Shown: in pieces, positions 3,964-62,553 of the stretch | Numbering within the stretch: the stretch's first letter is position 1 | How the letters are laid out: the number at the start of each line of letters is the position of its first letter | Assembly (NCBI GenBank): GCA_964511175.1 | Contig: CAZEEI010000001.1 | Span: 23,216-87,215, forward strand | Direction of reading: 5' to 3' | DNA: 64,000 nt | Source of the DNA: an uncultured Pseudomonadales bacterium | Lineage (GTDB): Bacteria; Patescibacteriota; Microgenomatia; UBA1400; UBA1396 | Notes under the pieces: generated by a model | The model's input: only the letters and a program-made list of their open reading frames with translations | Databases searched by the model: none | What the model was told of the DNA's origin: nothing | Translations under genes and position numbers: made by a program

Positions 3964-6546
3964 ATGGCTTACGACCACCGGTCTCTTGAGAAAAAGTATA
4001 CTCAGCAGTGGCGAGAGCAACGTCTCTATGAGCCCGATTTGCGCGCCGCCGCACGGCCTTATTACAACCTCATGATGTTTCCTTATCCCTCGGCAGAAGG
4101 GCTGCACGTGGGTAACATGTATGCCTTTACCGGTGCTGACGTTCACGGCCGGTTTTACCGAATGTTGGGATTTGACGTTTTTGAACCGATTGGTTTGGAT
4201 GGTTTTGGTATTCACTCGGAGAATTACGCCATCAAAGTAGGTCGCCATCCGGCGCAGCAGGCTAAAGTCTCTGAGGATAATTTTTACCGTCAGCTGGGAG
4301 CGATCGGCAATGGATTCGCCTGGGAAGAACGCCTGGAAACTTACGATCCGGAGTATTATCGCTGGACACAGTGGCTGATGATGCAAATGTTCAAGCATGG
4401 TCTGGCTTACAAAGCCGAAGCGGCAGTGAACTGGTGTCCTTTTGACAAAACGGTTTTGGCCGACGAGCAAGTCGAGGACGGGGTGTGCGAGCGCTGTAAA
4501 AATCCGGTCGAGCGGCGCACGATGAGCTCCTGGTTTTTGCGGATTACCGATTATGCGGACCGCTTGTTGGATAATATCGACAATTACGCCTGGCAGGATG
4601 CTGAGGGGAAAACGCACCGCGGTTTGCAGTGGCCTGGTAAAGTGACCACTGCCCAGCGGAACTGGATTGGGCGCACGACTGGCTTGGATATTGATTTTGC
4701 TCTGGAAAATAGCCCGGAAAAAATTACCGTTTGGACTAAGTTTTGGGAAACGATTTTTGGTGTTACATACTTGGTTTTGGCTCCCGAGCATCCATTGGCG
4801 AGCCGCATTGCCAGCCAGTCACAAAAAACGGCTGTGGCGGAGTACATCCACTCGGCTTTGAATCGATCAGAGCAGGACCGTCAGGCTGGCCAGGAAAAAA
4901 GTGGCGTATTTACCGGTGCTTACGCCGTTAATCCGGTTAACGGTGAACGAGTACCTATCTGGATTGCCGACTATGTTTTAACGACTGTTGGAACTGGGGC
5001 GGTAATGGGTGTGCCGGCGCATGATGAGCGAGACTTTGCTTTTGCTCAGAAATTTGGTTTACCGATTATTCAGGTAGTAGCTTACGCTGACCCCCAAATC
5101 AATCAGGCAGTGGCTCGAGGAGAGCGTTCGTATGAGGGGGAAGGAGTACTTCTGCACTCTGGCCAGTTCGACGGACAAGCGGCTTGGGGAGAGGGAAAAA
5201 CGGCCATTCAAAATTGGCTGGTTAACCAAAATTGGGCGCGCGAACGAGTTAATTATCACCTACGCGATTGGCTGATCTCCCGCCAGCGTTACTGGGGGCC
5301 GCCCATTCCGTTAATCTACTGTGAACATTGTGCTGAACAGGGCAAAGGTGAGCGCCCCGAATTGCCTGGCTGGTATGCGGTGCCGGAAGCGGATTTACCG
5401 GTTCTTTTGCCAGAAATTAGCGACTTCAAACCCAAGGGTGACGGTACTTCGCCGCTGGCCAACGCGCCAGACGACTGGAAGTCGGCCGCCTGTCCAGTTT
5501 GTGGCCAACCGGCCAAACGCGAGCTCGATGTTTCCGATACTTTTTTGGATTCGGCTTGGTATTTTCTGCGCTATCCCTGGTTGGGCGAAAACGATCACCC
5601 GTTCGGAACGGTTCTGCCGTTTGAAAACCTCAAGGAGAATCGACCTGGAACGATTCTTCCAGAGGTAGCTGAGCGCCAGAAGCGTTCTCAACTTAGCTGG
5701 TTCCCGGTTGACGCCTATATCGGCGGTGCCGAGCACGCAGTGTTGCACCTGCTTTATGCCCGCTTTGTCACCATGGCTCTGCACGATTGGGGTTATTTAC
5801 CCAGTGATGAACCTTTTCCATTTTTATTCGGCCACGGACTGATCATCAAGGACGGCGCCAAAATGAGTAAGTCGCGCGGCAATGTGGTTAATCCGGACGA
5901 GTATATCGCCAAGTACGGCGCTGACGCTCTGCGTGCCTATCTGATGTTTTTGGGACCCTATGACCAGGGCGGCGACTTTCGCGACACCGGTATGAGTGGC
6001 ATGTACAAGTGGCTGACGCGGATTTGGGATCAATTCAGCCAAATTTCGGGCGAGGCGACTGATCCAGATCTCAAGCGAAAACTCCACCAAGTAATTGCAG
6101 CTAATACCGCTGATCTCTACCAGTTTAAATACAATACCTGTTTAGCTCGGCTTATGGAGGTGGTTAACCTCTGGCGTGAAGGGGAGACGATGGGGCGGCC
6201 GGAAGCGATTATTTTCCTCCAGCTGTTGGCACCGTTTGCGCCGTTTCTAACCGAGGCGCTTTACCAGCAAATTCAGGATAAAAACGGAACGAGTGTGTTC
6301 CATTCGATTCATAGTTCAATTTGGCCGCCAGCTAATTCGGCCCTACTCGAGGCGGAAACAATCCCGATCGCCATTCAGGTCAATGGCAAACTGCGGGGTG
6401 TGATCGAAGTTAATCTGCAGCAGGCAACTGATCAGGAGTTTTTAACAACTAAGGCCAAGCAACACGAAACAGTACAGCGTTTTCTCACCGCCGAATCCAA
6501 AAAAGTTATTGTCGTTCCCGGTAAAATTATCAACTTTGTGATCTAA
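3964..6546 (+). CDS. leuS: Leucyl-tRNA synthetase
   Basis: MAYDHRSLEKKYTQQWREQRLYEPD... class I LeuRS N-terminus with an HVGN (HIGH-type) motif and a KMSKS motif (GAKMSKSRGN). Start chosen at ATG 3964 inside the longer track ORF 3691..6546. Confidence 0.9.
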   Translation: MAYDHRSLEKKYTQQWREQRLYEPDLRAAARPYYNLMMFPYPSAEGLHVGNMYAFTGADVHGRFYRMLGFDVFEPIGLDGFGIHSENYAIKVGRHPAQQAKVSEDNFYRQLGAIGNGFAWEERLETYDPEYYRWTQWLMMQMFKHGLAYKAEAAVNWCPFDKTVLADEQVEDGVCERCKNPVERRTMSSWFLRITDYADRLLDNIDNYAWQDAEGKTHRGLQWPGKVTTAQRNWIGRTTGLDIDFALENSPEKITVWTKFWETIFGVTYLVLAPEHPLASRIASQSQKTAVAEYIHSALNRSEQDRQAGQEKSGVFTGAYAVNPVNGERVPIWIADYVLTTVGTGAVMGVPAHDERDFAFAQKFGLPIIQVVAYADPQINQAVARGERSYEGEGVLLHSGQFDGQAAWGEGKTAIQNWLVNQNWARERVNYHLRDWLISRQRYWGPPIPLIYCEHCAEQGKGERPELPGWYAVPEADLPVLLPEISDFKPKGDGTSPLANAPDDWKSAACPVCGQPAKRELDVSDTFLDSAWYFLRYPWLGENDHPFGTVLPFENLKENRPGTILPEVAERQKRSQLSWFPVDAYIGGAEHAVLHLLYARFVTMALHDWGYLPSDEPFPFLFGHGLIIKDGAKMSKSRGNVVNPDEYIAKYGADALRAYLMFLGPYDQGGDFRDTGMSGMYKWLTRIWDQFSQISGEATDPDLKRKLHQVIAANTADLYQFKYNTCLARLMEVVNLWREGETMGRPEAIIFLQLLAPFAPFLTEALYQQIQDKNGTSVFHSIHSSIWPPANSALLEAETIPIAIQVNGKLRGVIEVNLQQATDQEFLTTKAKQHETVQRFLTAESKKVIVVPGKIINFVI

Positions 6547-6586: not shown

Positions 6587-7237
6587 GTGAAGCAATGGTG
6601 GCGACAATATTGGTTACGCACGGTGCTTGGACTTTCCGGGTTGATAAGTTGTGTCTTGGGAGCAGTTTTTACCTACAAGGCCCACTATGAACACCCGCAG
6701 TATAGTTACTTGCCGGCCGACCAGGAGTGGCGTGATCACTTACACGAAGTAGTTGACTTAGCCCGCCGTCAAACGGATGCGTCCGCTGCCGCCGAACTCC
6801 TGGTTGATGTGGCTGGTGCAGTGGTTAAACCTGGTGTATATCAAGTTAACGCCGGCGGACGCATCCAAGAGGCTATTTTGGCGGCCGGCGGTTTTGCTGT
6901 GGAAGCAGATCAACAATATATCCATCAAAAGCTAAATTTGGCCGACCTACTGCACGACCGTAGCAAAATTTATATTCCCTTTACAGGTGAGATTGATCCG
7001 TCCGTTCAAGCCAACACTGATGCCAGTGTATCAACGACCGAAACTAGTCAGATAGTTAATCTCAATACTGCCAGTAGTATCGAATTGCAGAGTTTGACTG
7101 GAATAGGTGACAAAAGAGCTACGGAAATTATTGCGGCGCGCCCAATTGCTAACGAGCAGGATCTAATTGCCCGCACTAGTATCGGCGCAAGTATTTTGAC
7201 TAATATTATTGCTGATGGATTTACTTTGACATATTAA
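6587..7237 (+). CDS. comEA: Competence protein ComEA (SLBB domain plus helix-hairpin-helix DNA-binding domain)
   Basis: N-terminal TM anchor. C-terminal VNLNTASSIELQSLTGIGDKRATEIIAARP is an HhH motif typical of ComEA. Confidence 0.8.
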   Translation: MKQWWRQYWLRTVLGLSGLISCVLGAVFTYKAHYEHPQYSYLPADQEWRDHLHEVVDLARRQTDASAAAELLVDVAGAVVKPGVYQVNAGGRIQEAILAAGGFAVEADQQYIHQKLNLADLLHDRSKIYIPFTGEIDPSVQANTDASVSTTETSQIVNLNTASSIELQSLTGIGDKRATEIIAARPIANEQDLIARTSIGASILTNIIADGFTLTY

Positions 7238-7515
7238 TATTAACGAATAATAAGCAAATATGAATAATATCAACGCAAAATAGTGAAGAGAAATAAAAAA
7301 GGAGATAATTTTCGAAAATGATAAAAATTAACGCAATATGATTTATAAATACAAAAAACGAGTTTTACTTGGCTTTTAATGATTAAGTAAGGTTGGTTTT
7401 CGACAGTTTACGGCGATTTTGCTAATCACTGTTGATTGGATAAAAAACCTTATTGAAAAGGAAGAAAAGATGAAATTACTTATTTCTGTTTCGGTTTTTA
7501 ATCGGAAAGATAAAA

Positions 7516-8409
7516 ATGGTTGATGTTTTGGCTGATGCTCAAGCATTGGGAGCGGGCCTCTTGATAGGCAATGACCGCGGGTTGTCGTCGTCTGCCAACC
7601 AGCTTTTCCAGGCTGCCAGTATCCAGCACCTCACTGCAGCCAGCGGGGCTAATCTGGGTTTGGCGGTCTGGCTGGCTGGGCCACTACTTTATCCCTGGAA
7701 TTACCGACTCAAACACCTGGGCAAAGGGATAGTTTACGCTGTTTACTGGCTAATCGCCGGCGGTAGCGGCTCTCTTTGGCGGGCGTCAGTGATGGCCTTA
7801 TTATTATGGTTTAGCCACTGTTTAGGTCGTAAAACGGCTCAATGGTATGTCTGGTTGTTCACTATCTTGGTGGGCCAACTAAGTAATGTTTCTTATTACC
7901 GCACCAAGGGATTCTGGTTGTCGGCCGCCGCGGTACTAGGAATGTTGTTTTCACAGAAAGTTAAGCCAGGTGAAAATTACATGGCCTTATTACCGCAATG
8001 GCAAAGGTGGGTTAAAAGCTTATTTTTGCCTATATATTTTGGCTTAATAGTGACTATCTTTGTGTTACCTTTTCTTTGGCAATTCTTCGGTCAATTAAGC
8101 CTCAACAGCGCTTTTTCCACCGCTTTAGCTTCGCCTTTTATTTTCCCCCTACAGTTGACCGCCTTATTTTTCTTCGGGTCTCAGCATTTTCTCAGGTGGG
8201 TAGCGCCTTGGTTGGCTCTATGCCTAGTCGGAGAATACCGTCTTTTTACCCACTTCATTAGGCAATTTGTTAATTTTATCCAATCCAGTTGGTTTGTTTT
8301 GTTTTCGGTAATGAGTTTAATTGTGGCGCTGAGGTTAGGTTTTCGGGTTTGCCGATTAATTCAACAACAACGATACTGCCAAAAGCGATATCAAATATGG
8401 CAAGTTTGA
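7516..8409 (+). CDS. comEC: ComEC/Rec2 N-terminal polytopic competence-domain portion
   Basis: Multi-TM competence-domain-like sequence. Ends at TGA 8407-8409, overlapping the next ORF, which is in a different frame. Confidence 0.55.
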   Translation: MVDVLADAQALGAGLLIGNDRGLSSSANQLFQAASIQHLTAASGANLGLAVWLAGPLLYPWNYRLKHLGKGIVYAVYWLIAGGSGSLWRASVMALLLWFSHCLGRKTAQWYVWLFTILVGQLSNVSYYRTKGFWLSAAAVLGMLFSQKVKPGENYMALLPQWQRWVKSLFLPIYFGLIVTIFVLPFLWQFFGQLSLNSAFSTALASPFIFPLQLTALFFFGSQHFLRWVAPWLALCLVGEYRLFTHFIRQFVNFIQSSWFVLFSVMSLIVALRLGFRVCRLIQQQRYCQKRYQIWQV

Positions 8410-9272
8410 TGTTCAGCGCCAATCGCTTAGGTTTACTAATTGGCGGCGGATTGTGTTTAGTTGGTTGGTTTATGGCGGCTACTCAGCCAATTTATCCCCA
8501 AGTGATAGCTTGTGACGTAGGTCAAGGAGACGCGATCCTCCTGCGCTATGGTACAGTTGCGGTTTTAGTAGATGTTGGACGGAAACAAGGCATCTTGCCC
8601 TGTCTAAGATATAAGCTTGCTTTGGGGCAGACCAGCATCCAAACAGTTCTTCTCACCCATTGGGACGATGATCATATCGGGGCTTTTTCGGATGTAGCGG
8701 CGGCCTACCGGATTGGAACAGTGATTAGTAACCCGAACATTAAGGACTCAACTACCGCTCAACAAGTGGTTGAAACAATTAAGCAGGCCAGGGTAAATTT
8801 GACTCCCAGTCCGGGCGATGAACTGGTTTTCCCGGGCGGCAGGGTTCGTTTTGTCTGGTCGGCAACAGCGATAAGCGATCCCGCCACCAATACAACCGAA
8901 AATGATCGTTCCATTGGGATAGTGGCTAGCTTTAAAAGTTTCGGGTTTTTAGGTCTAGGTGACCTAGAGTGTGCCTCAGAATTAGCAGTCTCTAACTTAC
9001 CTCTGCTAATTTCGACGCCAATTTTAAAAATATCGCACCATGGGTCAAAAACATCATCTTGCACTCCTTTTATCGCTAAAATTGAGCCCGAAATAGCGAT
9101 CCTCTCGGTTGGTGAGGATAATAAGTATGGTCATCCCGCAGCAGAAATTTTAGCGATTTTGCGCGACCAGGCGACAACGGTTTTACGTACCGACCAGCTG
9201 GGTAGCCTGGAGATCCAGAGGAAAGGGAAAAATTGGTTATGGCGTTCGCAGCGTTGGTCAAACAGTGATTAA
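8397..9272 (+). CDS. comEC: ComEC/Rec2 C-terminal metallo-beta-lactamase domain portion
   Basis: TM helix, then VIACDVGQGDAILL...LLTHWDDDHIGAF...ISHHGSKTSS MBL motifs. Starts at ATG 8397, overlapping the upstream ORF by 13 nt in another frame. Confidence 0.6.
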   Translation: MASLMFSANRLGLLIGGGLCLVGWFMAATQPIYPQVIACDVGQGDAILLRYGTVAVLVDVGRKQGILPCLRYKLALGQTSIQTVLLTHWDDDHIGAFSDVAAAYRIGTVISNPNIKDSTTAQQVVETIKQARVNLTPSPGDELVFPGGRVRFVWSATAISDPATNTTENDRSIGIVASFKSFGFLGLGDLECASELAVSNLPLLISTPILKISHHGSKTSSCTPFIAKIEPEIAILSVGEDNKYGHPAAEILAILRDQATTVLRTDQLGSLEIQRKGKNWLWRSQRWSNSD

Positions 9273-13976: not shown

Positions 13977-14687
13977 TTAATCCCGCAGCTTTTCGTAGGG
14001 CCGGATTTGGTAATCATTTGGCCAGAAATAATAGAGCGTAGCATGTTCTTCGTCATTGATTTCGAAAGCCACTATAGTGCCATCGTCAAAGGTGATTAGT
14101 CCGTGATCATTATCGCCGCCTCTTCTGATTTCAATAATTCCGAGCGCATGGCCACCGATTATTAAGCAGGTTTTCGGCTTTAAGTCCTCTATTGCCATAA
14201 TGCTAGTGACAAATTTGTAACCCTCCGGTGCCGATCCTCGGCGGAACCACCCCACTTGTTGGTCAATCTGATTACCAAGACGAGATTGCCGAAGAGCCAT
14301 CCTCTTTCCCGGGGAATTAGCGTCAGCTAACCGCGCCTGCCAAATACGCAATTCATTGCCATAGGAGTACATCGGGTGAGAACCGGGGGGAACGAGTGCG
14401 ATCGACATCGCATCATGGCGTAACGCCTCTAATTTTAAAAGAACCATAAGCTCAAACATTTCTGAATCTTTCAAAATGGGTAAAATGATTTCTGGTAACA
14501 AAAACCTCGCGAAATAATCAACCCGCAAATTGTTCGAATCAACTGATTGTTCTCCTGCCCGCCGCAAGATACGGTCAATGAATTCAATTAGACCAGGGGT
14601 TTCTGCCTTTGGGTCAAATTCGACCAAAAGGCCACCTTGTTGCTTTTCTTTTACTGCGGGTTTATGAGTAGGCATAAAAACCTCCAA
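13977..14687 (-). CDS. Hypothetical protein
   Basis: 236-aa ORF with no recognisable motif. Lies next to the 3' side of tRNA-Pro. Confidence 0.4.
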   Translation of the reverse strand: MEVFMPTHKPAVKEKQQGGLLVEFDPKAETPGLIEFIDRILRRAGEQSVDSNNLRVDYFARFLLPEIILPILKDSEMFELMVLLKLEALRHDAMSIALVPPGSHPMYSYGNELRIWQARLADANSPGKRMALRQSRLGNQIDQQVGWFRRGSAPEGYKFVTSIMAIEDLKPKTCLIIGGHALGIIEIRRGGDNDHGLITFDDGTIVAFEINDEEHATLYYFWPNDYQIRPYEKLRD

Positions 14688-19385: not shown

Positions 19386-20133
19386 CGCGGTGATTAAGGC
19401 GATCATTAGGCATTGTTTTACTGGTACTGGTCAAGAGTTTCAAGATTGGTGGCAACAACATTTGCAGACAGGTCATGGTTTACAGTTGATTTTTACGCCT
19501 AATCCCGAGCAAAGCGTATTGGCAACCGATAGCGACACATTTCGTGATTGTTTGCTAAGCGGTGATCAGCTATTAGCCGATGGCGCCGGTCTGGTGTGGG
19601 CCTCACGCCTGGAGGGTGTCACCCTCCACCGTATAACCGGTGTGGATATGACGGCTTGGTGGTTGCGGGTAAATCGCCAAGGAAAGGTGTCAACCTTACT
19701 GATTGGCGGCCGCGACAACGTGGCGGCAGATTTGGCGCGCCAAGTTGATCCTGACGACCAGTGGTGCTCTGGTATATCTGGCCACCTCAACGTCGCGGCC
19801 GCCCATGATCCGGCCTATCAAGATCAGATGGCCGATGAAGAACAAGCAATTTTTGACGCGATTAAAAAGAGAAAACCACAAGTAGTATTAGTTGCCTTTG
19901 GCGCTCCATGGCAGGAAGAGTTTTTATGTCGTCATCGGGAACAACTGGCCAAACTAGGCGTCAAAATAGCGATGGTCTGCGGTGGGGCTTTCGATTATCT
20001 CACCGGTCAAGCACCGCGCGCTCCTGGCTGGTTGCGGGCGATTGGCCTGGAATGGCTGTTTCGGTTATGGCAAGAACCCTGGCGCTGGCGGCGACAACTA
20101 CGGTTAATACGCTTCATTCACCTGGTGGTGTAA
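19378..20133 (+). CDS. WecG/TagA-family (GT26) glycosyltransferase
   Basis: LLADGAGLVWASRLEGVTLHRITGVDM aligns to the conserved ADGMGVVWAARLLG...RVAGSDL region of WecG/TagA. Start ATG 19378 overlaps the upstream stop. Confidence 0.7.
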   Translation: MRNAVIKAIIRHCFTGTGQEFQDWWQQHLQTGHGLQLIFTPNPEQSVLATDSDTFRDCLLSGDQLLADGAGLVWASRLEGVTLHRITGVDMTAWWLRVNRQGKVSTLLIGGRDNVAADLARQVDPDDQWCSGISGHLNVAAAHDPAYQDQMADEEQAIFDAIKKRKPQVVLVAFGAPWQEEFLCRHREQLAKLGVKIAMVCGGAFDYLTGQAPRAPGWLRAIGLEWLFRLWQEPWRWRRQLRLIRFIHLVV

Positions 20134-22464: not shown

Positions 22465-22676
22465 AAATGTCCTTTATTATTTTGGGCGACACGACCGAAA
22501 AAAGGAAAAAGTGCGGCTCATAGCGAGCGAAACTATTTTCTCTCCTCGGCACAATGTCGGTGCTTTCTTTGGATCGAGAACTGAATTATAGCAGAAAAAT
22601 GCGACTAAACAAGGTTAAAAGAGAAAATCAACCCTTCTTGCCAAAGTATTACTTTTTTAGTAAAGTATTACCAATT

Positions 22677-22922
22677 ATGAACGGTATTACTACTATTACC
22701 AGTAAAGGCCAGGTAGTTATTCCTAAGTCGATTCGGGATCAGTTTGGCCTCAAGCCCGCCAGCAAAGTGCAGTTTATGGTTAAAGATCAAACTATTTTTT
22801 TGCGTGTACAGCCCTCGGTTAGAGACATCATGGGATCGCTATCAACGTCACGTCGCCTCAATCGCCAACAAGAAAAAAGCGCTTTTGCTCAAGCGGTTAT
22901 TGATGATGTACAGGATAAATGA
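22677..22922 (+). CDS. AbrB/MazE/SpoVT-type antitoxin (VapB-like)
   Basis: ITSKGQVVIPKSIRDQFGLKPASKV swapped-hairpin motif. Start ATG 22677 inside track ORF 22554..22922. Confidence 0.6.
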   Translation: MNGITTITSKGQVVIPKSIRDQFGLKPASKVQFMVKDQTIFLRVQPSVRDIMGSLSTSRRLNRQQEKSAFAQAVIDDVQDK

Positions 22923-23275
22923 CGATCTTAGACACAAGTGCTGTTTTGCGTTTTCTTTTACGAGACGATCGGGAGAAAGCCGAGCAGGTAGCTTTGGTTT
23001 TAGAAAATGAATCGTCAATATTTATTCCGCAGGCAGTTTTTATTGAACTCGATTTTGTGTTGCGTAAAAGTTACCGAATTTCCCGTTCGGACGTAGCTTA
23101 TCAACTCAGTAGTTTGAGCGATCTGCCCAACGTCAAAACTGACCCAGAGACCCGCGTTGCTTTAACCATTTATTTGGGTACCAATTTGAGTTTAGCCGAT
23201 TGTTTCGTTTTGGCGTACGCTCATGGCCAGAGCTTGTGTTCTTTTGATGTCGATTTAATGAAAAACCGCTACTAA
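22919..23275 (+). CDS. PIN-domain toxin (VapC-like)
   Basis: MTILDTSAVLRFLL..., 118 aa, start overlapping the antitoxin stop (ATGA). Confidence 0.65.
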   Translation: MTILDTSAVLRFLLRDDREKAEQVALVLENESSIFIPQAVFIELDFVLRKSYRISRSDVAYQLSSLSDLPNVKTDPETRVALTIYLGTNLSLADCFVLAYAHGQSLCSFDVDLMKNRY

Positions 23276-26201: not shown

Positions 26202-26262
26202 GAAGCGGCATTATACCATAGCGCTTGGCCTAGGTTGGTGTATCAAAATGGCCAAAACCGAT

Positions 26263-26345
26263 AGTTGTACAACTATGATCTGGTAGAACCTTTTCGGTAG
26301 AGACTAGACTTGAGGTAAGTTGTACAACTGTTGGTTTGGCTGGTT
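26263..26345. repeat. Copy A of a ~85-bp intergenic repeat unit bounded by two AGTTGTACAACT 12-bp palindromes spaced 55 bp apart
   Basis: About 88% identical to 56280..56362. Sits in the divergent secE/galU intergenic region. Confidence 0.6.
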
Positions 26346-26418
26346 TTGATAGATAAGCCCGAACCAGATTTTCGCCAGGATTCTCCAATAAAGCGGCCTT
26401 CTGTTATACTGGTTTCCT

Positions 26419-28625: not shown

Positions 28626-28757
28626 ATGACCCGTCAGGTTATGTTGAGGTATTCATTCCTCGATAGTTTGCTTACGGGAGGAGCCGTGTCCCTCAAAAGA
28701 CCGTCCACCCACCTGGATTTTTCCGGGGGCAATGCACTCAACATGCTGACGGGTCAT
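28626..28757. repeat. Imperfect inverted repeat (~22-bp arms ATGACCCGTCAGG..TTGAG / CTCAA..CTGACGGGTCAT) flanking ~90 bp just after metK
   Basis: Left arm 28626..28648 and right arm 28737..28757 are reverse complements apart from a short indel. Confidence 0.5.
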
Positions 28758-29089
28758 TTTATTGGGAAGAGAGCGCTGACCTGCCGCAAAATTTCCACTA
28801 GTTTCTGTTCAGTCAAATAACCGGCCGACTTTTGGATGATCGTTGTTTCCGCAGTAAATAGCTTGTCTGGTCGAGCATAACTGGTTAGCGGTAAACTACC
28901 TTGGCGAAAATCGCTAGCTTGGATTCTAATCGCCAGTCGGCTCGAGTAAGGTTTGGAAGTTATTTGACACAGAATAAAGTTACCGAACTCGGCTTGAGCC
29001 AAAACCAAAGCTGGTCGTCGCTTCTGACCGCGTAAATCGGAAAACGGGAAAGTGACGACCACTATCTGTCCAATTACAAATCGGCCCAC
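28754..29089 (-). CDS. MazF/PemK-family endoribonuclease toxin
   Basis: GQIVVVTFPFSDLRGQKRRPALVLAQ has the conserved MazF/PemK N-terminus. 111 aa. Confidence 0.7.
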   Translation of the reverse strand: MGRFVIGQIVVVTFPFSDLRGQKRRPALVLAQAEFGNFILCQITSKPYSSRLAIRIQASDFRQGSLPLTSYARPDKLFTAETTIIQKSAGYLTEQKLVEILRQVSALFPIK

Positions 29090-29449: not shown

Positions 29450-30241
29450 TTAACGTGATAAGTAACGAGTTTTCTTTCCGAGTTTGCAATCTAAACAATA
29501 TCGGAAAAAAAGGGCAAAAATCATATCGGCACCACCTTGTTTTGTTGCCTCCTCAATTAATGCCTCGATATCTTCCACAGTCACATACTCAAGTAATCCC
29601 AGCGACAATTTTTCTTGAGTGTCTAACTCCTGCCAAACACCAAGATTTTGCGCAATTTGAACATAAAAACGCTGAGCCATTTCGAGAATGACCGTTTCAT
29701 TTGGTCTCAGGGGTCTATCACTGCCCGAATTAAATATAGCATTAGCGTATCCGGATAATATTCTCATGAGCTGTTCTTGCTCCGAGCGTGAAGTTAGTTC
29801 CAAAAGAAAAGATTGTCCCTTGTTTGACTCTGGATGATTGGTTTTTTTTCTTGGTCGTGCCGACATTTTTTTACTACCCTTACGGGCTAGGCAGTATTTG
29901 AACAATTCGACATTATATCCAATGTGTTCTTTCTCAGCTTGTTGGACTAGTGCTTGCAACTCTTCTGGGGTTACATATTCGAGTAAACCCATGGTGGCCT
30001 TCAAATGTGTACTAACTTGGTCAAAGACACCAAGATTTTGCGCAATCTGAATATAAAGACGCTGAGCCATGGCTAGAGTAATATTTTGCCTTGAGTCAGG
30101 AGGGCTGTTGGTAGTTTTGGTAAATAAATAACTGGCGCGGTCGGCCATTATTCTCATGAGCTGTTCTTTCTCTGATTGTGAAGTTAGCTCCAAAGCCAGA
30201 AAAGAATTATTTTCACGCTCATGGTTATTAATTGCAGTCAT
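29450..30241 (-). CDS. Hypothetical protein built from two ~125-aa internal repeats
   Basis: ELTSQSEKEQLMRIMADRA...LAMAQRLYIQIAQNLGVF...LLEYVTPEELQALVQQAEK is repeated as ELTSRSEQEQLMRILSGYA...LEMAQRFYVQIAQNLGVW...LLEYVTVEDIEALIEEATK. Confidence 0.45.
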   Translation of the reverse strand: MTAINNHERENNSFLALELTSQSEKEQLMRIMADRASYLFTKTTNSPPDSRQNITLAMAQRLYIQIAQNLGVFDQVSTHLKATMGLLEYVTPEELQALVQQAEKEHIGYNVELFKYCLARKGSKKMSARPRKKTNHPESNKGQSFLLELTSRSEQEQLMRILSGYANAIFNSGSDRPLRPNETVILEMAQRFYVQIAQNLGVWQELDTQEKLSLGLLEYVTVEDIEALIEEATKQGGADMIFALFFRYCLDCKLGKKTRYLSR

Positions 30242-35185: not shown

Positions 35186-35228
35186 GACGCCAGGTTAACA
35201 AATCCGTCAGAGTTTGTACAATGAGGAC

Positions 35229-39063: not shown

Positions 39064-40242
39064 ATGGCAAAAATTACCCAACGCGATCTGGCGATTATTT
39101 TGCGCTCAGCTTATCCGGCTTCTTTTTGGACAGTACGCACATTGGTTGCCTTGGCTGAGCGGCATGGTGCCGAACAAGTTGATCGCTGGTGGCAAAACGG
39201 TCAGGTTGAAGTTTTTCGCCAGGGCTGCGTTGATTTATTGACCAAAAATGCGCTTACCGAAACTTTAGCACAGCGTGAACTCACCCGTTTAAACCATTTT
39301 TTTCAACAACAACGTTGGCAATCTTTGGCAACACTGCAGAAATATTGGCACCGGCAAAACCAACTTTTGGCTCGCCGCGGCATTATTATCACTACCTTTT
39401 TTGATCCAAATTGGCCGATTCGCTTAAACGAATTGGTGGAGCCGCCTAGCGTTTTATGGAGCACGCGCCCCTTAGCTCCATTACTGGATCGTCCTTGTTT
39501 GGCGGTAGTGGGGACGCGTTCGCTGACTTATTATGGCCGCCGTGCGGCGACTTATTTTGGCAGGGTTTTAGGCGGCGACTACGGTATAACGATTGTATCT
39601 GGTTGTGCGCGGGGAGCTGATTGGACAACCCAAGCGGCGGCCTTGCGCGCCGGCGGGCAGAGCATTGGTTTATTAGGTTGTGGCATCACTTACCCGCCGG
39701 CGCGCTGTCAGGAAGTACCCGCTGATTCCCGGTTGGCGCTAGTTTCCGAGTTTGCTCCTTTTTCCCATAGTGCCAAATGGTATTTTCCCTTCCGCAACCG
39801 CTTAATTGCCGGCTTAGCCCAAAGTGTGCTAGTGATTGAAGCCGGGGAACATAGCGGCAGTTTTATCACTATCCAAGCCGCGCGCGAGCAAAACAAAACG
39901 GTAATGATCCTCAGTCAGCCTTTTTTTAATGACAACACTCATGCTCTCCAGGCTTTGGCTGGTGAGGGTAGCGCCCGTGTAGTGGTGCGTCCGGAGAATG
40001 TTTTGGAAGAGTTGGGTATCAAAGGTAAATCTGGTCAGCCGCTACCAACTCTCCCAAAAGTTTTGGTTTTGGCTCAAAATGAAGCCGAACAACAAGCACT
40101 TACCGCACTCTACCAACGCGGCGGTCAAGCTTTTGCTAGTGATTTATCCGCCTGGAAACAGGCCTGTCTTAGCCTGGAAGCACGCGGCTTAATTAGCGAA
40201 CAACTAGGTGTCTATCAGCTTTCAGGTATGATACAGTCTTAA
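39064..40242 (+). CDS. dprA: DNA processing protein DprA (Smf) with N-terminal extension
   Basis: LAVVGTRSLTYYGRRAATYFGRVLGGDYGITIVSGCARGADWTTQAAALRAGGQSIGLLGCGI is a DprA Rossmann-like signature. Confidence 0.8.
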   Translation: MAKITQRDLAIILRSAYPASFWTVRTLVALAERHGAEQVDRWWQNGQVEVFRQGCVDLLTKNALTETLAQRELTRLNHFFQQQRWQSLATLQKYWHRQNQLLARRGIIITTFFDPNWPIRLNELVEPPSVLWSTRPLAPLLDRPCLAVVGTRSLTYYGRRAATYFGRVLGGDYGITIVSGCARGADWTTQAAALRAGGQSIGLLGCGITYPPARCQEVPADSRLALVSEFAPFSHSAKWYFPFRNRLIAGLAQSVLVIEAGEHSGSFITIQAAREQNKTVMILSQPFFNDNTHALQALAGEGSARVVVRPENVLEELGIKGKSGQPLPTLPKVLVLAQNEAEQQALTALYQRGGQAFASDLSAWKQACLSLEARGLISEQLGVYQLSGMIQS

Positions 40243-42881: not shown

Positions 42882-42925
42882 GGCTCGGGGCTGGTTGGGT
42901 ATATTAAAAACTGTTTTTTGTCATT

Positions 42926-42977
42926 TTGTACAAAATCGACGGTTAACTTGTACAACAACCTGGCCTAAATTGTACAA
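42926..42977. promoter_or_regulatory. Array of three TTGTACAA palindromes with exact 22-bp centre-to-centre spacing, upstream of dut
   Basis: Sites at 42926-42933, 42948-42955 and 42970-42977. The same motif and spacing recur at 52648-52699. Confidence 0.55.
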
Positions 42978-43013
42978 AAGAGCAGAAACGTGTTTTTGAA
43001 ATATAGGGGGACT

Positions 43014-45301: not shown

Positions 45302-46149
45302 GGCGCATCGGGGCGCATTTAACATCAGCCGGCGGGCCAGAACGCGCGGTGGATCGTGCCTTAGCCATTGGTGCTGATTGTTTGCAGATTTTTTCTGGGT
45401 CGCCGCGGGCGTGGGCCCGCCGGCCGCTGCACGAGGATGGGTTAAGATCTTTCCAAAAATACAGTTTAGAACATGATATTCGGCCAATCTTCGTACACGC
45501 TTTATATTTAGTGAACCTAGCAAGCGACCAAACAGAACTTGTGCAAAAGTCGGTAAAAGTATTGATTCATGATTTAAAGTTTGGGGCAGGTTTTAATTCG
45601 GCCGGGGTAGTAGTCCATCTAGGTTCCCATCAGGGGAGGGGTTGGCTGGCTGTCAGAGAGAATGTTGCTTTGCTAATTAAAAAAATCATCGACGAAGCCG
45701 CAGCTGATACGCCATTTTTAATCGAAAACTCAGCCGGCCAAAACGGTAAACTCTGTTCCGATCTAAGCGAAGTTCGTTGGTTGCTAGATACGGTGGCGCG
45801 GCCCAGCCTAGGCTGGTGCTACGACACCTGCCACGGCTGGGCCGCGGGTTACTACGCCTCCCAACCACAGTTAGGCGGCAAAAACTTATTAACAGAAGTG
45901 GATCGGTTAGAACTTTGGCCAACTTTGCGTTGTCTTCACGTCAATGATTCGCGTGATCCCTTCGGCGATGGGCGCGACCGGCACGATAATATCGGCAAAG
46001 GACAGATCGACTTGACGGAGTTTAAGATGCTGTTAAATCATGCCCAAGCACAAGAGATACCGATTATTACGGAAGCGCCAGGCTTGGATGGCAATGGACC
46101 TGATAGCTATAATCTAGAAGAAATTAAAAAACTAGTTAGCGTCGTTTAG
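45265..46149 (+). CDS. nfo: Endonuclease IV (AP endonuclease family 2); the true start is probably the GTG/TTG near 45292-45298
   Basis: RIGAHLTSAGG..., HALYLVNLAS, VVHLGSH, LIENSAGQ and DTCHGWAAGY are the xylose-isomerase-like TIM-barrel Nfo motifs. Confidence 0.8.
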   Translation: MERSAPPGSVRLRRIGAHLTSAGGPERAVDRALAIGADCLQIFSGSPRAWARRPLHEDGLRSFQKYSLEHDIRPIFVHALYLVNLASDQTELVQKSVKVLIHDLKFGAGFNSAGVVVHLGSHQGRGWLAVRENVALLIKKIIDEAAADTPFLIENSAGQNGKLCSDLSEVRWLLDTVARPSLGWCYDTCHGWAAGYYASQPQLGGKNLLTEVDRLELWPTLRCLHVNDSRDPFGDGRDRHDNIGKGQIDLTEFKMLLNHAQAQEIPIITEAPGLDGNGPDSYNLEEIKKLVSVV

Positions 46150-46882
46150 CTTTTTCTGACTGACGTTCACTACGTTCGCCTAAATCTAATGCGAGCTTGA
46201 CTTGAGTTGCGGCGACTTCATCTTGTAATCGAGTAATACGAGCGTAATGTTCTTCTTGAGCCTGCTGTTTAGCTACTATTTTTAGTTCTTGTTTTTGGTA
46301 ACGGCGCCGCGATCGTTGTAGCCGTCGAGTACCGGCTAAAACACGGTTGGCTACCAAAGTGGGGTTCACTGTTTGCAGATTAGTATCCTCATTCGCCGCC
46401 AGAGCGATTATTTTTTGACGGGCTGCTGTATATTTTTCTCCGATTGGCGTTTCTGCTGTACAATCAAGTAATGTGCAAGCTATTGTCACCACCAAACAGG
46501 CTGCAAATAATCCCGGGTAGAGCTCTATTTTCTCATCATAGGTAAGTGCAGAAACTTTAAGGATCAAAAAAAGAGCGGCTGGTGTAACCAACGTGAGTAT
46601 TAAACGAGCGAACCTACGGTCTCTCCGAGCATCACGGTATTCTTGGCAAACTTCGATCGCCTGTTGCAATTCAACAGGTAGATCCTGCCATTCAGCATCA
46701 CGTTGGGACTGTATTGCTGCTGCTAACTCATTAGCTCGAGGAGTAGAGCCAGAATTCAGTGGTGCAGTTGCTAGTTCAAGTAAACTTTCGTTCCAAGTTT
46801 GTCCGTCATCACGCGAGTAATCTACGATCAAAACTTCTTCTGGCGCAAGTTCGGATTGCTTTTCTAATAATTGATGTCTCAT
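46136..46882 (-). CDS. Paralog A of a 4-gene tandem family: N-terminal soluble domain (IEVCQEYRDAR motif), two TM helices, basic coiled-coil C-terminus
   Basis: Shares an N-terminal h-h-D/E-Y-x-x-DDG motif and an I-x-x-CQEY-x-x-AR motif followed by 2 TM with paralog B. 248 aa. Confidence 0.5.
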   Translation of the reverse strand: MRHQLLEKQSELAPEEVLIVDYSRDDGQTWNESLLELATAPLNSGSTPRANELAAAIQSQRDAEWQDLPVELQQAIEVCQEYRDARRDRRFARLILTLVTPAALFLILKVSALTYDEKIELYPGLFAACLVVTIACTLLDCTAETPIGEKYTAARQKIIALAANEDTNLQTVNPTLVANRVLAGTRRLQRSRRRYQKQELKIVAKQQAQEEHYARITRLQDEVAATQVKLALDLGERSERQSEKAKRR

Positions 46883-47640
46883 GACTCGTCGATTCCAAGT
46901 CGAGCCCGAGCCTCATCTAACGCTTTCGCTTTTTCGAGAAATAGGGTTTGAGCTGCCTCTTTAGTTTGTTGTTTACGACGGCGGTGATCAGTATCCTGTT
47001 TTTGTTGGCGCAAATCACGTTGCAGAGAGCGGGTGCCGCTCAGAATACGGTCGACAAACCGATCTGGATCAGAGGTGTAAGGGCTAAGACCTAGTTGTTC
47101 AGCCAGCACTAAAACTTCATCGCGGGCTTGCTGATATCTTGTTTTGACTCGTGTGATGCTCTGTGCCAAAGCATCAGCGGGAAGGCTAGCCAAAGAATCA
47201 AGATCATTGTCGGTGGGGCCAGTGTACTTTGCGGAAGTGGCAATACCGCGTGCCAGTGAATAAGCGATTAAAGCAACAAATGGTACGCAGGCTACTTCGG
47301 TAGTAGACAGGGGCGCCCGAGAAATTATGGCCAGTAGCGGCAAAATTATCGACAGCAAAATTAAAAAGGGTAAATAGGAGTCCCGCTTATATTGAAAGCG
47401 AGCCTCTTGATATTCTTGGCAAACTTCGATTATCTGACGTAATTGAGCTGGTATTTCAACCATTTCGCCGTTAGCTGATTGGCTCCGTAGTGAGTCCTGA
47501 TAGTTGGCGATTAGGTCGGCGACTACCTGGTCGATTTCCAGATCGGAGTCAACTTGTTCTGTCTCTGGATTAGCGAAAGGGCTTGCGCCATCATCGATGC
47601 CATATTCATCAATCAGAACTTCGTGATGTTGGAGTTTCAT
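46879..47640 (-). CDS. Paralog B of the tandem family (253 aa)
   Basis: EVLIDEYGIDDGASP...LRQIIEVCQEYQEARFQY..., 2 TM, then a basic C-terminal region. Its stop overlaps the start of paralog A. Confidence 0.5.
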   Translation of the reverse strand: MKLQHHEVLIDEYGIDDGASPFANPETEQVDSDLEIDQVVADLIANYQDSLRSQSANGEMVEIPAQLRQIIEVCQEYQEARFQYKRDSYLPFLILLSIILPLLAIISRAPLSTTEVACVPFVALIAYSLARGIATSAKYTGPTDNDLDSLASLPADALAQSITRVKTRYQQARDEVLVLAEQLGLSPYTSDPDRFVDRILSGTRSLQRDLRQQKQDTDHRRRKQQTKEAAQTLFLEKAKALDEARARLGIDES

Positions 47641-47695
47641 AACGTCCTATATTATATCATAATAGACGTAACCCGGCAGAGATTAGGGAACTTAA

Positions 47696-48191
47696 TTATC
47701 GGAAACGTTTAGCGCTTTTACTAATGCGTTTGGCGGCGGCCTTAGCGTCAATAGTCTTAGGGTCAAGCGTATCGCCAGCTATTCGTTTAGCTACTTTTTG
47801 GCCGGCTGTCCGCACTTTGGCCCCGGAAAGATCGTCAAACAATCCTCCCATTAACTCATTAGTTCCCTCAAAGTTATTGTTTCCGGCTAATATGTCTCCC
47901 CAGCACGACATGGCTTCAAAAAGGAATATGGCAAAACCAAGTCCACCCAAGCCAGCCAGCAGCATTTCCGGTCTGAATTTGCCATCGATCATAGTTAATG
48001 AACTAATAACCGCTAAAACCAAGAAATAAAGTGAAGGCGCGGTCATGACGGGCCTCCTGGTATTCTTGGCAAGCTTGGATAGTTTCCTGTAACGGCTTGG
48101 GCAAATCGTAAAAGTCAGCAAATGTAGGGCTATTTATTTGTTGAGTTAATCGATCGACTTCCTCTTGATTTTGCTTTGACATAGTCATCAA
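47696..48191 (-). pseudogene. Paralog C of the tandem family, split by an apparent 1-nt frameshift
   Basis: ORF 48003..48191 carries LQETIQACQEYQEARHDRAF then stops. The TM and C-terminal portion continues in another frame (47696..48046) from ...PSLYFLVLAVISS. Confidence 0.4.
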
Positions 48192-52614: not shown

Positions 52615-52647
52615 TGGCCAATATTTCAAAATAGCCAAAACCGCCTA

Positions 52648-52699
52648 TTGTACAAAAAGAACATCTGTTTTGTACAAAATGGCTGATCAAATTGTACAA
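52648..52699. promoter_or_regulatory. Second array of three TTGTACAA palindromes at exact 22-bp spacing (convergent tsf / membrane-gene intergenic region)
   Basis: Sites at 52648-52655, 52670-52677 and 52692-52699. Confidence 0.55.
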
Positions 52700-52732
52700 C
52701 TATCGGTTTTTGGGTTTTCAATATATTTCCCT

Positions 52733-56238: not shown

Positions 56239-56279
56239 AGATTTTCAGTAGGAATGTTTCAAAAACCCAAAAACCAGTA

Positions 56280-56362
56280 GTTGTACAACTATGATCTTGT
56301 GGAGCCTTTTCGGTTGAGGCTGGACTCGAGGTAAGTTGTACAACTGTTGGTTTTGGTCATTT
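56280..56362. repeat. Copy B of the ~85-bp repeat unit bounded by AGTTGTACAACT palindromes
   Basis: About 88% identical to 26263..26345. Sits in the convergent prs / HAD-gene intergenic region. Confidence 0.6.
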
Positions 56363-56375
56363 TGATATATGCTGT

Positions 56376-57020
56376 CTAATCTAGGTATGGCCACAAAGCC
56401 ATGAGGTTGCGTTCGTGAACACAATACTGCGCTAAAGAGGCCACCTCTTCCCGCCACGTAACACCGCCAAAATAAATGAAGCGATCGGCAATTAATCCGG
56501 CTTCATAGTCCGATATCCCATCACCAATTACGGCGGTGGGGCCGGGATTATTTTTTCTGATTTGAGTAACGATTTGTTGTTTGCCGAGATTACGCCAGAG
56601 AGGTATCGAACGGTCGAGCTCCCGGAATTTGCCGGATTCTGTGAAGAGTAGGTGATTGGCGAAAACATTTTCTCGGGGAATAGCTAAATAATCGGTCAGC
56701 GGATAAATACATTCAACATAGCCACCAGTTACCACAAAAATATTAGCCGAATGAACTCGTAAATGATGCAGTAGCCTTCTAGTACCTGGCGTCACATTCT
56801 GTTGATATAGTTGACCGATTATTTCTAATTCCGATTTGGTTGGTTGAAGCAAAGTTAAACGCTTAAGAAAAATTTTCTCCAGCAGTATTTTGCCGCTCAT
56901 AGCCTGATTAGTCAGCCGCTCAATCTGCGGACGCATTTTTTTCAATTCACCCAATTGGTCAATACCCTCAATGGTTGACAAAGTACTGTCTAGATCAAAA
57001 ACAACATTTGTAAACTTCAT
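56376..57020 (-). CDS. HAD-superfamily hydrolase (phosphoserine-phosphatase-like subfamily IB)
   Basis: VVFDLDSTL motif I. A later GDGISD motif. Confidence 0.6.
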   Translation of the reverse strand: MKFTNVVFDLDSTLSTIEGIDQLGELKKMRPQIERLTNQAMSGKILLEKIFLKRLTLLQPTKSELEIIGQLYQQNVTPGTRRLLHHLRVHSANIFVVTGGYVECIYPLTDYLAIPRENVFANHLLFTESGKFRELDRSIPLWRNLGKQQIVTQIRKNNPGPTAVIGDGISDYEAGLIADRFIYFGGVTWREEVASLAQYCVHERNLMALWPYLD

Positions 57021-57171
57021 AATTCCTTTCAAGATTGATTAAATGTCAAAAATACCGCCACCGGCGGAAAACTAAACAAGCAAACGAAATACCTCGTTCG
57101 CTCTAACGGGAGGAAGAGGAAAAGACTATCTGGAAGGCAAAAAAGGCCTTAATCATAACTGCATCATTCTA

Positions 57172-57486
57172 TCATACTTTCGATGGCTTAATTTTACTTT
57201 TAACAGCATAAGCAAATAATCGAATAATCGGCCGATTCTCCTTGGTGTAAATATCTCTGACTCCCAATGTCGCTTGACAATGCGGGCAGACTAAACATTC
57301 TTGGTTGTCGTCTAATAATTTAGGATTAACAATCCGATCAAGATACATTCTTTTTAAAGGTCCAGATCCATCTTTTTGATAATGGCAGACGGGTGTGTCA
57401 CAAGTAGCACAGTCAATTTGTAGTAAACGACTCCATCCACCCCGATTTTGACGATATTGGTCATTAATTAGTGGCATCAGCGTCAT
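57172..57486 (-). CDS. Small zinc-ribbon protein (hypothetical)
   Basis: CATCDTPVCH ... CLVCPHC are paired CxxC motifs. 104 aa. Confidence 0.35.
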   Translation of the reverse strand: MTLMPLINDQYRQNRGGWSRLLQIDCATCDTPVCHYQKDGSGPLKRMYLDRIVNPKLLDDNQECLVCPHCQATLGVRDIYTKENRPIIRLFAYAVKSKIKPSKV

Positions 57487-57512
57487 TATATACCTGCTAT
57501 TTTAAAGGGTGT

Positions 57513-57983
57513 TTATTTTGCAAAACTACCAATTATCGGATTAGACACCATTTGGAAATCCACATATTTCATGCGAATAGAAACAGAATGCGATCCAGCA
57601 CTAAAAAATATTTCTTTTTCATTTCCCAGCTTAGTATCCACATATAAAGGAATATTAAATAGGTTGCCAAAAGGGGGGACAGCCCCTATTTCCACTCCGC
57701 TAATTTTCTGCACCTCCTCAGGAATAGCCAGCGCCAAATTTTTAACTTTGATTAACTTTTTAATTTTTTGGAAATCGACTTTATCTTCGCCGGAAACAAC
57801 CACCATTAATGGTTTACCGTCGCCCAAGAGGATGAGAGCCTTAGTTCCCTGCGACAAACTTGCTCCAACCATTTTGGCGGCCTTGACAGAATTAAACACG
57901 GCCGGATGTTCAACCAGATTGTAGGCGACTCCTGTTTCCCGCAATAGGTCAATGATTTTTTCCGACAAAACTTTTTCTTTCAT
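57513..57983 (-). CDS. YbaK/ProX-family aminoacyl-tRNA deacylase
   Basis: KALILLGDGKPLMVVVSGEDKVD...VPPFG is typical of the YbaK/ProX editing domain. Confidence 0.7.
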   Translation of the reverse strand: MKEKVLSEKIIDLLRETGVAYNLVEHPAVFNSVKAAKMVGASLSQGTKALILLGDGKPLMVVVSGEDKVDFQKIKKLIKVKNLALAIPEEVQKISGVEIGAVPPFGNLFNIPLYVDTKLGNEKEIFFSAGSHSVSIRMKYVDFQMVSNPIIGSFAK

Positions 57984-59161
57984 TTATCACCATTCATTAC
58001 GAAGTAGCTATCACTAACCTGGCCTCGTTTTTTGGCAGAACCGTCAAAACGGTCAGCATTAAAGAAGGCGGCTAATTCCGGATAAGTAGAGCTGGTTTCC
58101 AAAATTGATTCGGCCAGTAGTTTACCCAAAACCGGGAAATGTTTATAACCGGTGCCGCTAAAACCGCTGGCAACGTAATAATTGGGTAGCTTGGTTTGGC
58201 CAACAATCGGGTAATAATCTGGAGTGATATCGATGCAGGAATCAAAGCCGCCCAGACTAATGGCATGGCTGAAGTCAGGTAGACGTTGGCTGATTTGTTC
58301 AAAATATTGCTTAATCATTGGCAAGCGGAAAAGTAATTCGCCGGCATTATGCGGCGCAATTTGCTGGTTTAAGTCCAGCGCCACGCTGCTGACATCCACA
58401 AATTCCGGATGGGGAATAAGATAAAACAAATTCACAAAATCAGCGATGGCGATTTGGGTGTTGCGCATTTGAAGCGGCAAACGGTAAAAGCAGTTAGTAA
58501 TGTTGATTACTTTGACCGGCAATTTCAGATCGAGAAACCGGTTAATCGTGTTGGTTGCCGCCGCTGTGGCGTTACATACCTTAATCGCTTCAATGGTGTC
58601 CTGTTCAGTAGCGACGATAAAACCAGCACCCCTGGTTCTAACATCGATAACTGGGCAATTTTCCCTAATTTCTACACCATGTTGACGACACTGATCAAGC
58701 AGATAACCGATAGTGCGCACCGGATTTAAATAGCCGGCCTGCGGATCGTAACCGGCGCAGGTGTTGGTGACGTTCAAGTCAGGATAAAGCGCTTTGATGG
58801 CCTGCTCTTCTAAGTATTGGGCCTCGATACCCAGTGATTGTAAAAGCTGCACGTTATCTTGCATGGCCTGGCTTTGGTCCAGGGAGTTGAGAACTAATAA
58901 TCCTTTGCGGACATACTGCAATCGGTTTTTTGACCGACCGAGGCGGCGTAAAGCTAAGTAACTTTCGTGGGCGGAAAAAGCCATTTCCTTAGCATTGTAA
59001 AAATGACGTACCAAGCCGCAACACTGACCAGTTTGGCCGGCGCCGGCGATTTGCTTTTCCAAAACTATGATGTGGTATTTGTCGCTAACCCTTTTAGCCA
59101 ACTCTAAGGCCGTAGCTAAACCGGTACTGCCGGCGCCGATAATAACGATGTTTTTTAACAT
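57980..59161 (-). CDS. FAD-dependent oxidoreductase (DAO family)
   Basis: IVIIGAGSTGLATALELAK is a Rossmann GxGxxG FAD motif. About 390 aa. Confidence 0.7.
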   Translation of the reverse strand: MLKNIVIIGAGSTGLATALELAKRVSDKYHIIVLEKQIAGAGQTGQCCGLVRHFYNAKEMAFSAHESYLALRRLGRSKNRLQYVRKGLLVLNSLDQSQAMQDNVQLLQSLGIEAQYLEEQAIKALYPDLNVTNTCAGYDPQAGYLNPVRTIGYLLDQCRQHGVEIRENCPVIDVRTRGAGFIVATEQDTIEAIKVCNATAAATNTINRFLDLKLPVKVINITNCFYRLPLQMRNTQIAIADFVNLFYLIPHPEFVDVSSVALDLNQQIAPHNAGELLFRLPMIKQYFEQISQRLPDFSHAISLGGFDSCIDITPDYYPIVGQTKLPNYYVASGFSGTGYKHFPVLGKLLAESILETSSTYPELAAFFNADRFDGSAKKRGQVSDSYFVMNGDK

Positions 59162-59181
59162 AATTGTCCTTTTCAAATTAA

Positions 59182-59204
59182 AAGCCCCCTGGGAGAGGGG
59201 GCTT
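59182..59204 (-). terminator. Rho-independent terminator (AGCCCCCT-GGGAG-AGGGGGCT) downstream of the 59334..60362 gene
   Basis: GC-rich 8-bp stem flanked by T-runs on both strands. Confidence 0.6.
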
Positions 59205-59333
59205 AGTTTTAGTTAATTGATTTTTTTATGCCACCGCTCCTCTTTTGCCACCAATAATGTATCGCCAAGCTGCCAAAAGCGGTGAATTAGAGATAAGTAT
59301 TTGGCAAAACTGGTTTTTCATATTAGTCGGTTT

Positions 59334-60362: not shown

Positions 60363-60504
60363 TTTTCTCCTCAGTGTAGCTATTCTGCATAGACTAATTC
60401 TATTCAAACTATCTGTTTTTACCACATCAATCAACTCTCGTCAATAAGTAGGTTAATCTCGTCTAAGAAGAGTGATACAATAAAAGCAATTGTCGAACCA
60501 ATCG

Positions 60505-60715: not shown

Positions 60716-60724
60716 GAGGGTGCT

Positions 60725-61060: not shown

Positions 61061-61072
61061 GATAAGGAAGTT

Positions 61073-62509: not shown

Positions 62510-62553
62510 AGTTGTGATTGACCAATACACATATTTGTGTGTACAATTCGGCC

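Follow-up and report, generated by a model that had tools for sequence, protein, structure and literature searches.

In the 64,000-nucleotide stretch of DNA analysed here (the window), the flagged sequence is best read as one copy of a lineage-specific, non-coding palindromic interspersed repeat family of the MITE, Correia or REPIN kind. At least five copies were found in about 70 kb of one strain, roughly one per 14 kb, in five different gene contexts. We put at about 0.55 the probability that the copies spread by mobilization in trans and that the responsible protein recognizes them by the dyads they carry. The initial annotation had proposed a small mobile or propagated non-coding element carrying TTGTACAA sites, and this proposal is supported by the additional copies, their unrelated contexts, their absence in relatives and the contig breaks that coincide with them. 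Patescibacteria (CPR) genomes are small, streamlined and usually described as repeat-poor. The elements are placed even between genes that overlap in relatives, which would show recent, active genome remodelling.

Anatomy of the elements and conservation of the dyads

The perfect 12-mer AGTTGTACAACT occurs at 26263, 26318, 56279 and 56334, with a spacing of 55 bp within each pair; 0.04 matches are expected by chance (dinucleotide-preserving shuffles). The paired perfect palindromes that the initial annotation described in both copies are therefore borne out, and the conserved-core string quoted there is correct. Its start for the first copy (26263) also holds, and the second copy starts at 56279 instead of 56280. 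The unit is longer than the ~85 bp assigned to it. A repeat search of the window aligns the two copies over 116 nt at 84% identity (26239-26354 vs 56255-56370), and outside each dyad pair there are additional inverted arms, TATCAAAAtGGCCAAAACC ... GGTTTGGCtGGTTTTGATA. The entire unit is therefore a long imperfect palindrome, of about 117 bp in these copies, with inverted arms of 37 nt. The flagged copy (E1) and its counterpart in the same orientation (E4) are composed as follows:

26238..26354, plus strand: E1, flagged copy, type 1, 117 bp
26238-26262: left arm of E1
26263-26274: first dyad of E1, AGTTGTACAACT
26275-26317: core of E1, 43 nt
26318-26329: second dyad of E1
26330-26354: right arm of E1
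56254..56370, plus strand: E4, type 1, same orientation as E1, 117 bp
56279-56290 and 56334-56345: dyads of E4
56291-56333: core of E4

The family also extends beyond the two copies first counted. A third type-1 copy (E5) lies just outside the window, on contig L165 of the same strain, and two further elements within the window (E2 and E3) share the arms:

42899..43004, unstranded: E2, sister element of type 2, 106 bp, TTGTACAA at 42926, 42948 and 42970 (22-bp period)
52621..52726, unstranded: E3, sister element of type 2, 106 bp, TTGTACAA at 52648, 52670 and 52692 (22-bp period)
L165 13862-13948, reverse orientation: E5, type 1, partial, as L165 ends inside it

Type 1 (E1, E4 and E5; 117 bp) has the order arm, dyad, 43-nt core, dyad, arm. 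Type 2 (E2 and E3; 106 bp) has the order arm, dyad, spacer, dyad, spacer, dyad, arm, and the core is absent. Because the TTGTACAA triplets are flanked by arms like those of E1 and E4, to which the arms of E3 are close, the two are subtypes of one family. The initial annotation was right that the element carries the TTGTACAA site family; the 22-bp triplets at 42.9 and 52.6 kb are not separate from it, being the interiors of the sister elements. Across both subtypes the element is 106-117 bp long, and the 37-nt arm consensus is ATATATCAAAAnnnCCAAAACCnnnAGTTGTACAAct. Nine arms, eight from the window and one from outside it, align to this consensus without any gap, and the inverted repeats that they form are 70-79% complementary. 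Between cores, identity is 84% for E1 and E4, 93% for E4 and E5, and 86% for E1 and E5.

The elements show no sign of coding capacity. Stops occur in most of the six frames, no open frame is common to the copies, and six-frame pseudo-proteins gave no match in a set of 5.8 billion proteins. Their palindromic nature is evident from predicted RNA folding, with plus-strand energies of −51 kcal/mol for E1 (z = −8.2) and −47.6 kcal/mol for E4 (z = −6.8). The minus-strand folds of both are less stable, and the fold of E2 is weaker (z = −3.1). The longest local inverted repeats of the whole window are E4, E1 and E2, in that order.

The dyads are the most constrained part of the element. The window contains 11 TTGTACAA sites where 1.25 would be expected, and 10 of these fall within the four elements. 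Eleven of eleven TTGTACAA sites seen are perfect, with 0 mismatches in 88 dyad positions, while 26% of residues at the 25 outer-arm positions differ from the consensus; at that rate, 88 unchanged dyad positions have a probability of ~2e-12. When only the type-1 copies are considered, none of 60 dyad positions has changed, compared with an arm rate of 18% (P ~5e-6). The spacers between the dyads of E2 and E3 are unrelated, and the 22-bp phasing is nonetheless exact. A hairpin requires complementarity from arm to arm only and has no need of self-complementary sites; the dyads thus resemble sites bound by a dimeric protein. On this ground we infer that the invariant dyads point to recognition by such a protein at sites two helical turns apart. 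The strict conservation of the dyads despite the diverged arms is equally compatible with selection for a host function after insertion.

One TTGTACAA (35214-35221) is solitary and lies outside any element, at or just before the start of an mreB-like gene. It is the only TTGTACAA conserved in the element-free relatives (L144 17525; L146 16359), and it may belong to a TACAAT −10 box.

Other repeats were observed in the window. Two G+C-rich inverted repeats (19702-19806 and 45323-45429) have arms of 26-27 nt with exactly 53 nt between them and sit in coding regions, those of a WecG-like and an AP-endonuclease-like gene. The ORF at 29450-30241 contains internal 390-bp direct repeats (29637-30194). 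Three neighbouring minus-strand ORFs that have no Pfam match (46136-48121) share a 55-nt repeat (46626-48103), a pattern suggestive of tandem paralogues.

Gene contexts, relatives and proposed mobilization

All five copies are intergenic and occupy short gaps between unrelated genes. The gene contexts given in the initial annotation for E1 and E4 are as stated there:

E1: between the start of secE (minus strand; a 67-aa SecE-like ORF) and the start of galU (plus strand), divergent
E2: between dcd and dut
E3: fills a 118-bp gap between tsf (plus strand; rpsB-tsf) and a convergent DUF1189 gene (minus strand)
E4: between a PRPP-synthetase-like (prs-like) gene (plus strand) and a HAD hydrolase gene (minus strand), whose 3' ends converge
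E5: 47 nt upstream of an unrelated methyltransferase gene

E2, E3 and E4 start 6-17 nt past the stop codon of the plus-strand gene. An HMM built from the eight arms of the window recovers exactly those eight arms there and nothing else credible; a weak match at 14463-14496, inside a coding ORF, was discarded as noise.

Contigs of the same strain extend this picture. The Logan contig L165 corresponds to window positions 56339-64000 and continues for another 6.3 kb; E5 is located about 6 kb past the window end. Type-1 copies contain three Logan contig ends: the start of L001 (window 26253), the start of L165 (56339) and the end of L165 (within E5). Such breaks suggest that further near-identical type-1 copies are present in the sample. 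E3 is traversed by contig L161, from a second sequencing run of the same strain, and its sequence is identical there. A family that breaks short-read assemblies is also a practical cause of fragmented MAGs.

The relatives keep the gene order and lack elements at all four window positions, with flanking proteins 71-86% identical (GalU 80-86%, S2 71-83%), a contrast of presence and absence at the between-species level only. Several of the GalU and S2 homologues carry the label of Patescibacteria-group bacteria (Pacebacteria, Woesebacteria). The secE-galU gap measures 61-117 bp in L144 and L147, with no element, and holds an extra gene instead in L198 and L199. In L164, dcd and dut overlap by 4 bp, again with no element. 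L162 has a gap of 2 bp behind tsf and of 23 bp behind prs, and at the prs position the genes overlap in L164. A search of about 126 kb of sequence from five or more related species yielded zero arm or core matches and almost no TTGTACAA. Since the elements are missing at matching sites in relatives, they are lineage-specific additions to short intergenic gaps, and the repeat family appears to be confined to one species-level lineage. The intergenic DNA of the relatives is too diverged to provide a clean empty site.

Some gaps and gene clusters of this region vary in other ways. The nusG-rplK and secE-galU gaps carry different inserted genes in each relative and look like insertion hot spots. 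Toxin-antitoxin genes are found in conserved clusters, with a MazE-like and PIN pair between rplJ and rplA (window 22554-23275) and PemK/MazF-like toxins at window 28754-29089 and L165 6505-6858.

We infer that the elements transpose. We propose that the copies arose via insertion and would have been mobilized in trans by the product of a gene located outside the region seen here, elsewhere in the genome, the likeliest candidates being transposases of the DDE type or the Y1/RAYT type. The self-complementary, invariant TTGTACAA dyads would be the binding sites of this dimeric mobilizing protein, and the A-tract and T-tract arms may provide bending or pairing. Transcripts that cross an inserted element would carry a long hairpin, which could alter 3'-end stability or read-through; in our view this is a side effect and not the reason why the family exists. 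The elements are short, non-coding and dispersed, have terminal inverted repeats and differ in presence between species, as is typical of MITEs, which are less than about 600 bp long. Pfam searches found no transposase, integrase or obvious partner protein in the 64-kb window and no transposase in the adjoining 6 kb. As for a target-site duplication, no consistent direct repeat of at least 3 bp was found, and the element ends are AT-rich (TA/ATAT) and hence ambiguous. The strictly conserved, phased dyads offer a starting point in the search for the protein by which the elements are moved or bound.

A mobilizer of the Y1 type has a precedent in the lineage. L162, the closest relative by S2, encodes a Y1_Tnp (IS200/RAYT-like) protein at 4770-5357, with the palindrome GGGTCGATCCCGGGATCGACCC on both flanks of the gene. 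The same palindrome recurs intergenically after proS (L162 13576) and at contig ends in L162 and L163, so that the whole looks like a classic REP/RAYT arrangement. This Y1 gene with its own REP indicates that REP/RAYT-like systems exist in the lineage, with species-specific repeat sequences. The GGGTCGATCCCGGGATCGACCC REP of L162 is absent from the window and is unrelated in sequence to the elements.

Alternative readings

A narrower possibility is that each element is specifically a REPIN, that is, two inverted REP units mobilized by a RAYT (Y1) through single-stranded hairpins and not a cut-and-paste MITE. The pair of inverted units with a small palindrome in each, the variable interior and the failure to find a clear target-site duplication are what such a system would produce, and the Y1_Tnp gene of the relative, with a flanking REP that recurs intergenically and at contig ends, agrees with it. 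However, tblastn with the Y1 protein of the relative as query detects no homologue in the window or L165. In known REP systems a conserved GTAG-type tetranucleotide adjoins the REP palindrome, and the RAYT gene usually has its own REPs on its flanks. Here, a GTAG in front of the palindrome is seen in just one of nine arms (the left arm of E4), and the other arms have ATAG, ACAG, CTAT or ATTT. The sole palindrome of the unit is 12 nt long with a GTAC centre and would form a very weak hairpin alone. Taken together, we regard the REPIN assignment as unlikely.

It is about equally doubtful that the phased TTGTACAA dyads are operators or nucleoid-protein sites kept because their binding is useful to the host, with mobility secondary or absent. 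The dimeric HTH protein in question would be a regulator, a nucleoid-associated protein or a chromosome-organizing factor. The dyads stay unchanged while the remainder of the element drifts, every site is self-complementary although a hairpin alone does not need this, and the phasing of exactly 22 bp (two helical turns) is kept across unrelated spacers. Arrays of the 10-mer GTTGTACAAC with a period of 22-23 bp occur in other bacteria, so the geometry recurs. Conversely, the sites are missing from the corresponding promoters and gaps in all sampled relatives, and there is therefore no conserved regulon; a set of transcription-factor operators was rejected for this reason. Moreover, of the four elements in the window, two are located between convergent 3' ends and a third within an operon. 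The sole TTGTACAA conserved in relatives, that at 35214, is not an element site, and no candidate binding protein was found.

In the Bacteroidaceae MAG JAKSIZ01, at least 17 copies were found of a repeat in which A7, three GTTGTACAAC sites with a 22-bp period and T7 follow one another, with 12-nt spacers and inverted flanks:

JAKSIZ01 repeat loci: L011, L012, L014, L022, L024, L026, L034, L044, L055
JAKSIZ01 repeat loci, continued: L063, L069, L074, L076, L092, L105, L106, L118

Related GTTGTACAAC arrays are present in Bacteroides, Segatella and Shimia with periods of 23 bp or 32 bp (23 bp in Bacteroides and Segatella). The resemblance of the JAKSIZ01 repeat may be convergent, because the scan demanded the GTTGTACAAC 10-mer. 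In viral contigs, two GTTGTACAAC separated by 12-13 nt occur at 28 loci (L168-L195), compared with 0 for each of three control palindromes. At 27 of the 28, the pair occupies one conserved position inside a small-terminase gene (PF10668, phrog_1889) adjoining terL. These 10-mers are read in two different frames and remain exact from 30% to 59% GC. Examples, together with a related pair in a Clostridium phage, are:

L178 7486-7517: GTTGTACAAC pair
L170 3476-3507: GTTGTACAAC pair
L197 148-179: Clostridium phage CDKM15, palindrome pair GTAGTACTAC at the equivalent place, 22-bp spacing

The paired palindromes in PF10668 genes are probably a terminase recognition site for packaging (pac). The elements of the window are not themselves such pac sites, as they are intergenic and no terS homologue is encoded in the window or L165.

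Other searches found nothing like the elements. Among the matches listed for the pattern GTTGTACAACN{30,60}GTTGTACAAC in a genome collection there were unrelated Bacteroidota, Paenibacillus and other repeats, none of them element-like. In JGI metagenomes, a scan for the two 12-mers at a distance of 38-48 nt matched 24 loci, every one of them an unrelated tandem repeat. Viral scans with two-dyad, three-dyad and arm-plus-dyad patterns gave nothing related, and BLASTN of E1 against phage and plasmid collections gave no match. A full-text literature search for TTGTACAA and GTTGTACAAC returned primers and Gateway att sites only; nothing on the JAKSIZ01 repeat was found with GTTGTACAAC.

It is conceivable, if quite improbable, that the 22-bp-phased TTGTACAA/GTTGTACAAC dyads are a cross-phylum recognition module of one HTH family and that the elements are its dispersed landing pads. 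They might then serve, for example, as pseudo-packaging sites that bias the choice of chromosomal DNA for packaging and transduction, or represent a new class of protein-bound chromosomal repeat instead of plain selfish MITEs.

We consider it similarly improbable that the elements were selected at the RNA level, as bidirectional terminators, insulators or 3'-end stabilizing hairpins for the flanking genes. The hairpins are long and stable, notably in E1 and E4, with A-runs 5' and T-runs 3' of the stem, and the Bacteroidaceae look-alike has the same arrangement of A7, hairpin and T7. Three elements begin shortly after a plus-strand stop codon, E3 and E4 lie between convergent genes, and in three of four elements the plus strand gives the more stable fold. 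However, a scan for consensus terminators was negative in all four window elements, the stems are AT-rich, and the T-runs belong to the stem. E1 and E5 are on the 5' side of genes, where a terminator is needless, and E2 would cut the dcd-dut operon. The relatives cope with gaps of 2-23 bp at matching positions. An intrinsic bidirectional terminator was rejected on the negative scan and the 5' positions of E1 and E5.

The initial annotation had also suggested a small RNA gene; in the form considered here, this gene would be the 43-nt core of the type-1 copies, bounded or processed through the palindromes. Conservation is higher in the core (84-93%) than in the arms, and a stem AGCCU/AGGCU is predicted in E4 and E5; it survives in E1 on the minus strand only, via two G-U wobbles. 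The remaining observations make this idea very improbable. No Rfam family matches, either at the gathering threshold or at E <= 10, where only tRNAs and noise came up. Promoter-like and terminator-like sites are absent from E1 and E4; weak promoter-like matches at E2 and E3 overlap the AT-rich ends. The covariation check that had been suggested gave zero compensatory changes among the predicted pairs, with little power from three type-1 copies. The core is missing from relatives and never occurs outside elements, type-2 elements do without it, and the orientation of E5 to its neighbouring gene is opposite to that of E1.

Several further identities were rejected. The anatomy does not allow a CRISPR array (repeats of only 8-12 nt), an integron attC site or a replication-origin iteron set (there are several chromosomal copies, and the arms are inverted). 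A DNA uptake sequence was rejected on the concentration of 10 of 11 TTGTACAA in four elements. Outside the elements there are 12 occurrences of TGTACA, compared with ~17 by a rough composition-based estimate. The competence and DNA-uptake genes comEA, comEC and dprA are encoded in the window (6587-9272 and 39064-40242), comEC being split into two overlapping ORFs (Competence and Lactamase_B).

Comparison with known systems

Among described repeats, the family read here as mobilized in trans resembles bacterial MITEs, and in particular the Correia elements of Neisseria. Both are non-coding, ~100-150 bp long and bounded by terminal inverted repeats, and in both the whole element can form a hairpin and is dispersed in many intergenic copies, some of them in operons. 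Both also occur as a longer and a shorter subtype with different interiors, end in AT-rich (TA-like) sequence and have a species-specific distribution. The likeness drawn here is one of features, and the elements differ in that no target-site duplication could be demonstrated and no parent IS or transposase was found. To our knowledge, two to three strictly conserved self-complementary dyads at 22- or 55-bp spacing are not a described feature of Correia elements.

REP and REPIN sequences with their RAYT, and mosaics of the BIME type, share with the elements the inverted pairs of short units, the long hairpins, the intergenic position and the combination of conserved units into mosaics with variable interiors. 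Conversely, no RAYT was seen here, GTAG is not conserved, and the palindrome of the unit is only 12 nt long.

The JAKSIZ01 repeat is similar to E2 and E3 in its core palindrome, its three sites at 22 bp, its A/T tracts, its length of ~100 bp and its dispersal. It belongs to another phylum, however; its arms and spacers are unrelated to those of the elements, and its spacers are themselves palindromic. The PF10668 phage site has in common with the elements the GTTGTACAAC 10-mer, the 22-bp spacing and a conservation at the DNA level that implies recognition by an HTH protein. It differs in lying within a coding gene, once per phage, in phages of Firmicutes hosts, and the type-1 elements have a 55-bp spacing. 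We treat this resemblance as an analogy in geometry and not as a relationship, as there is no evidence of a link. The recurrence of the dyad geometry in unrelated bacteria and phages hints at a common solution to DNA recognition.
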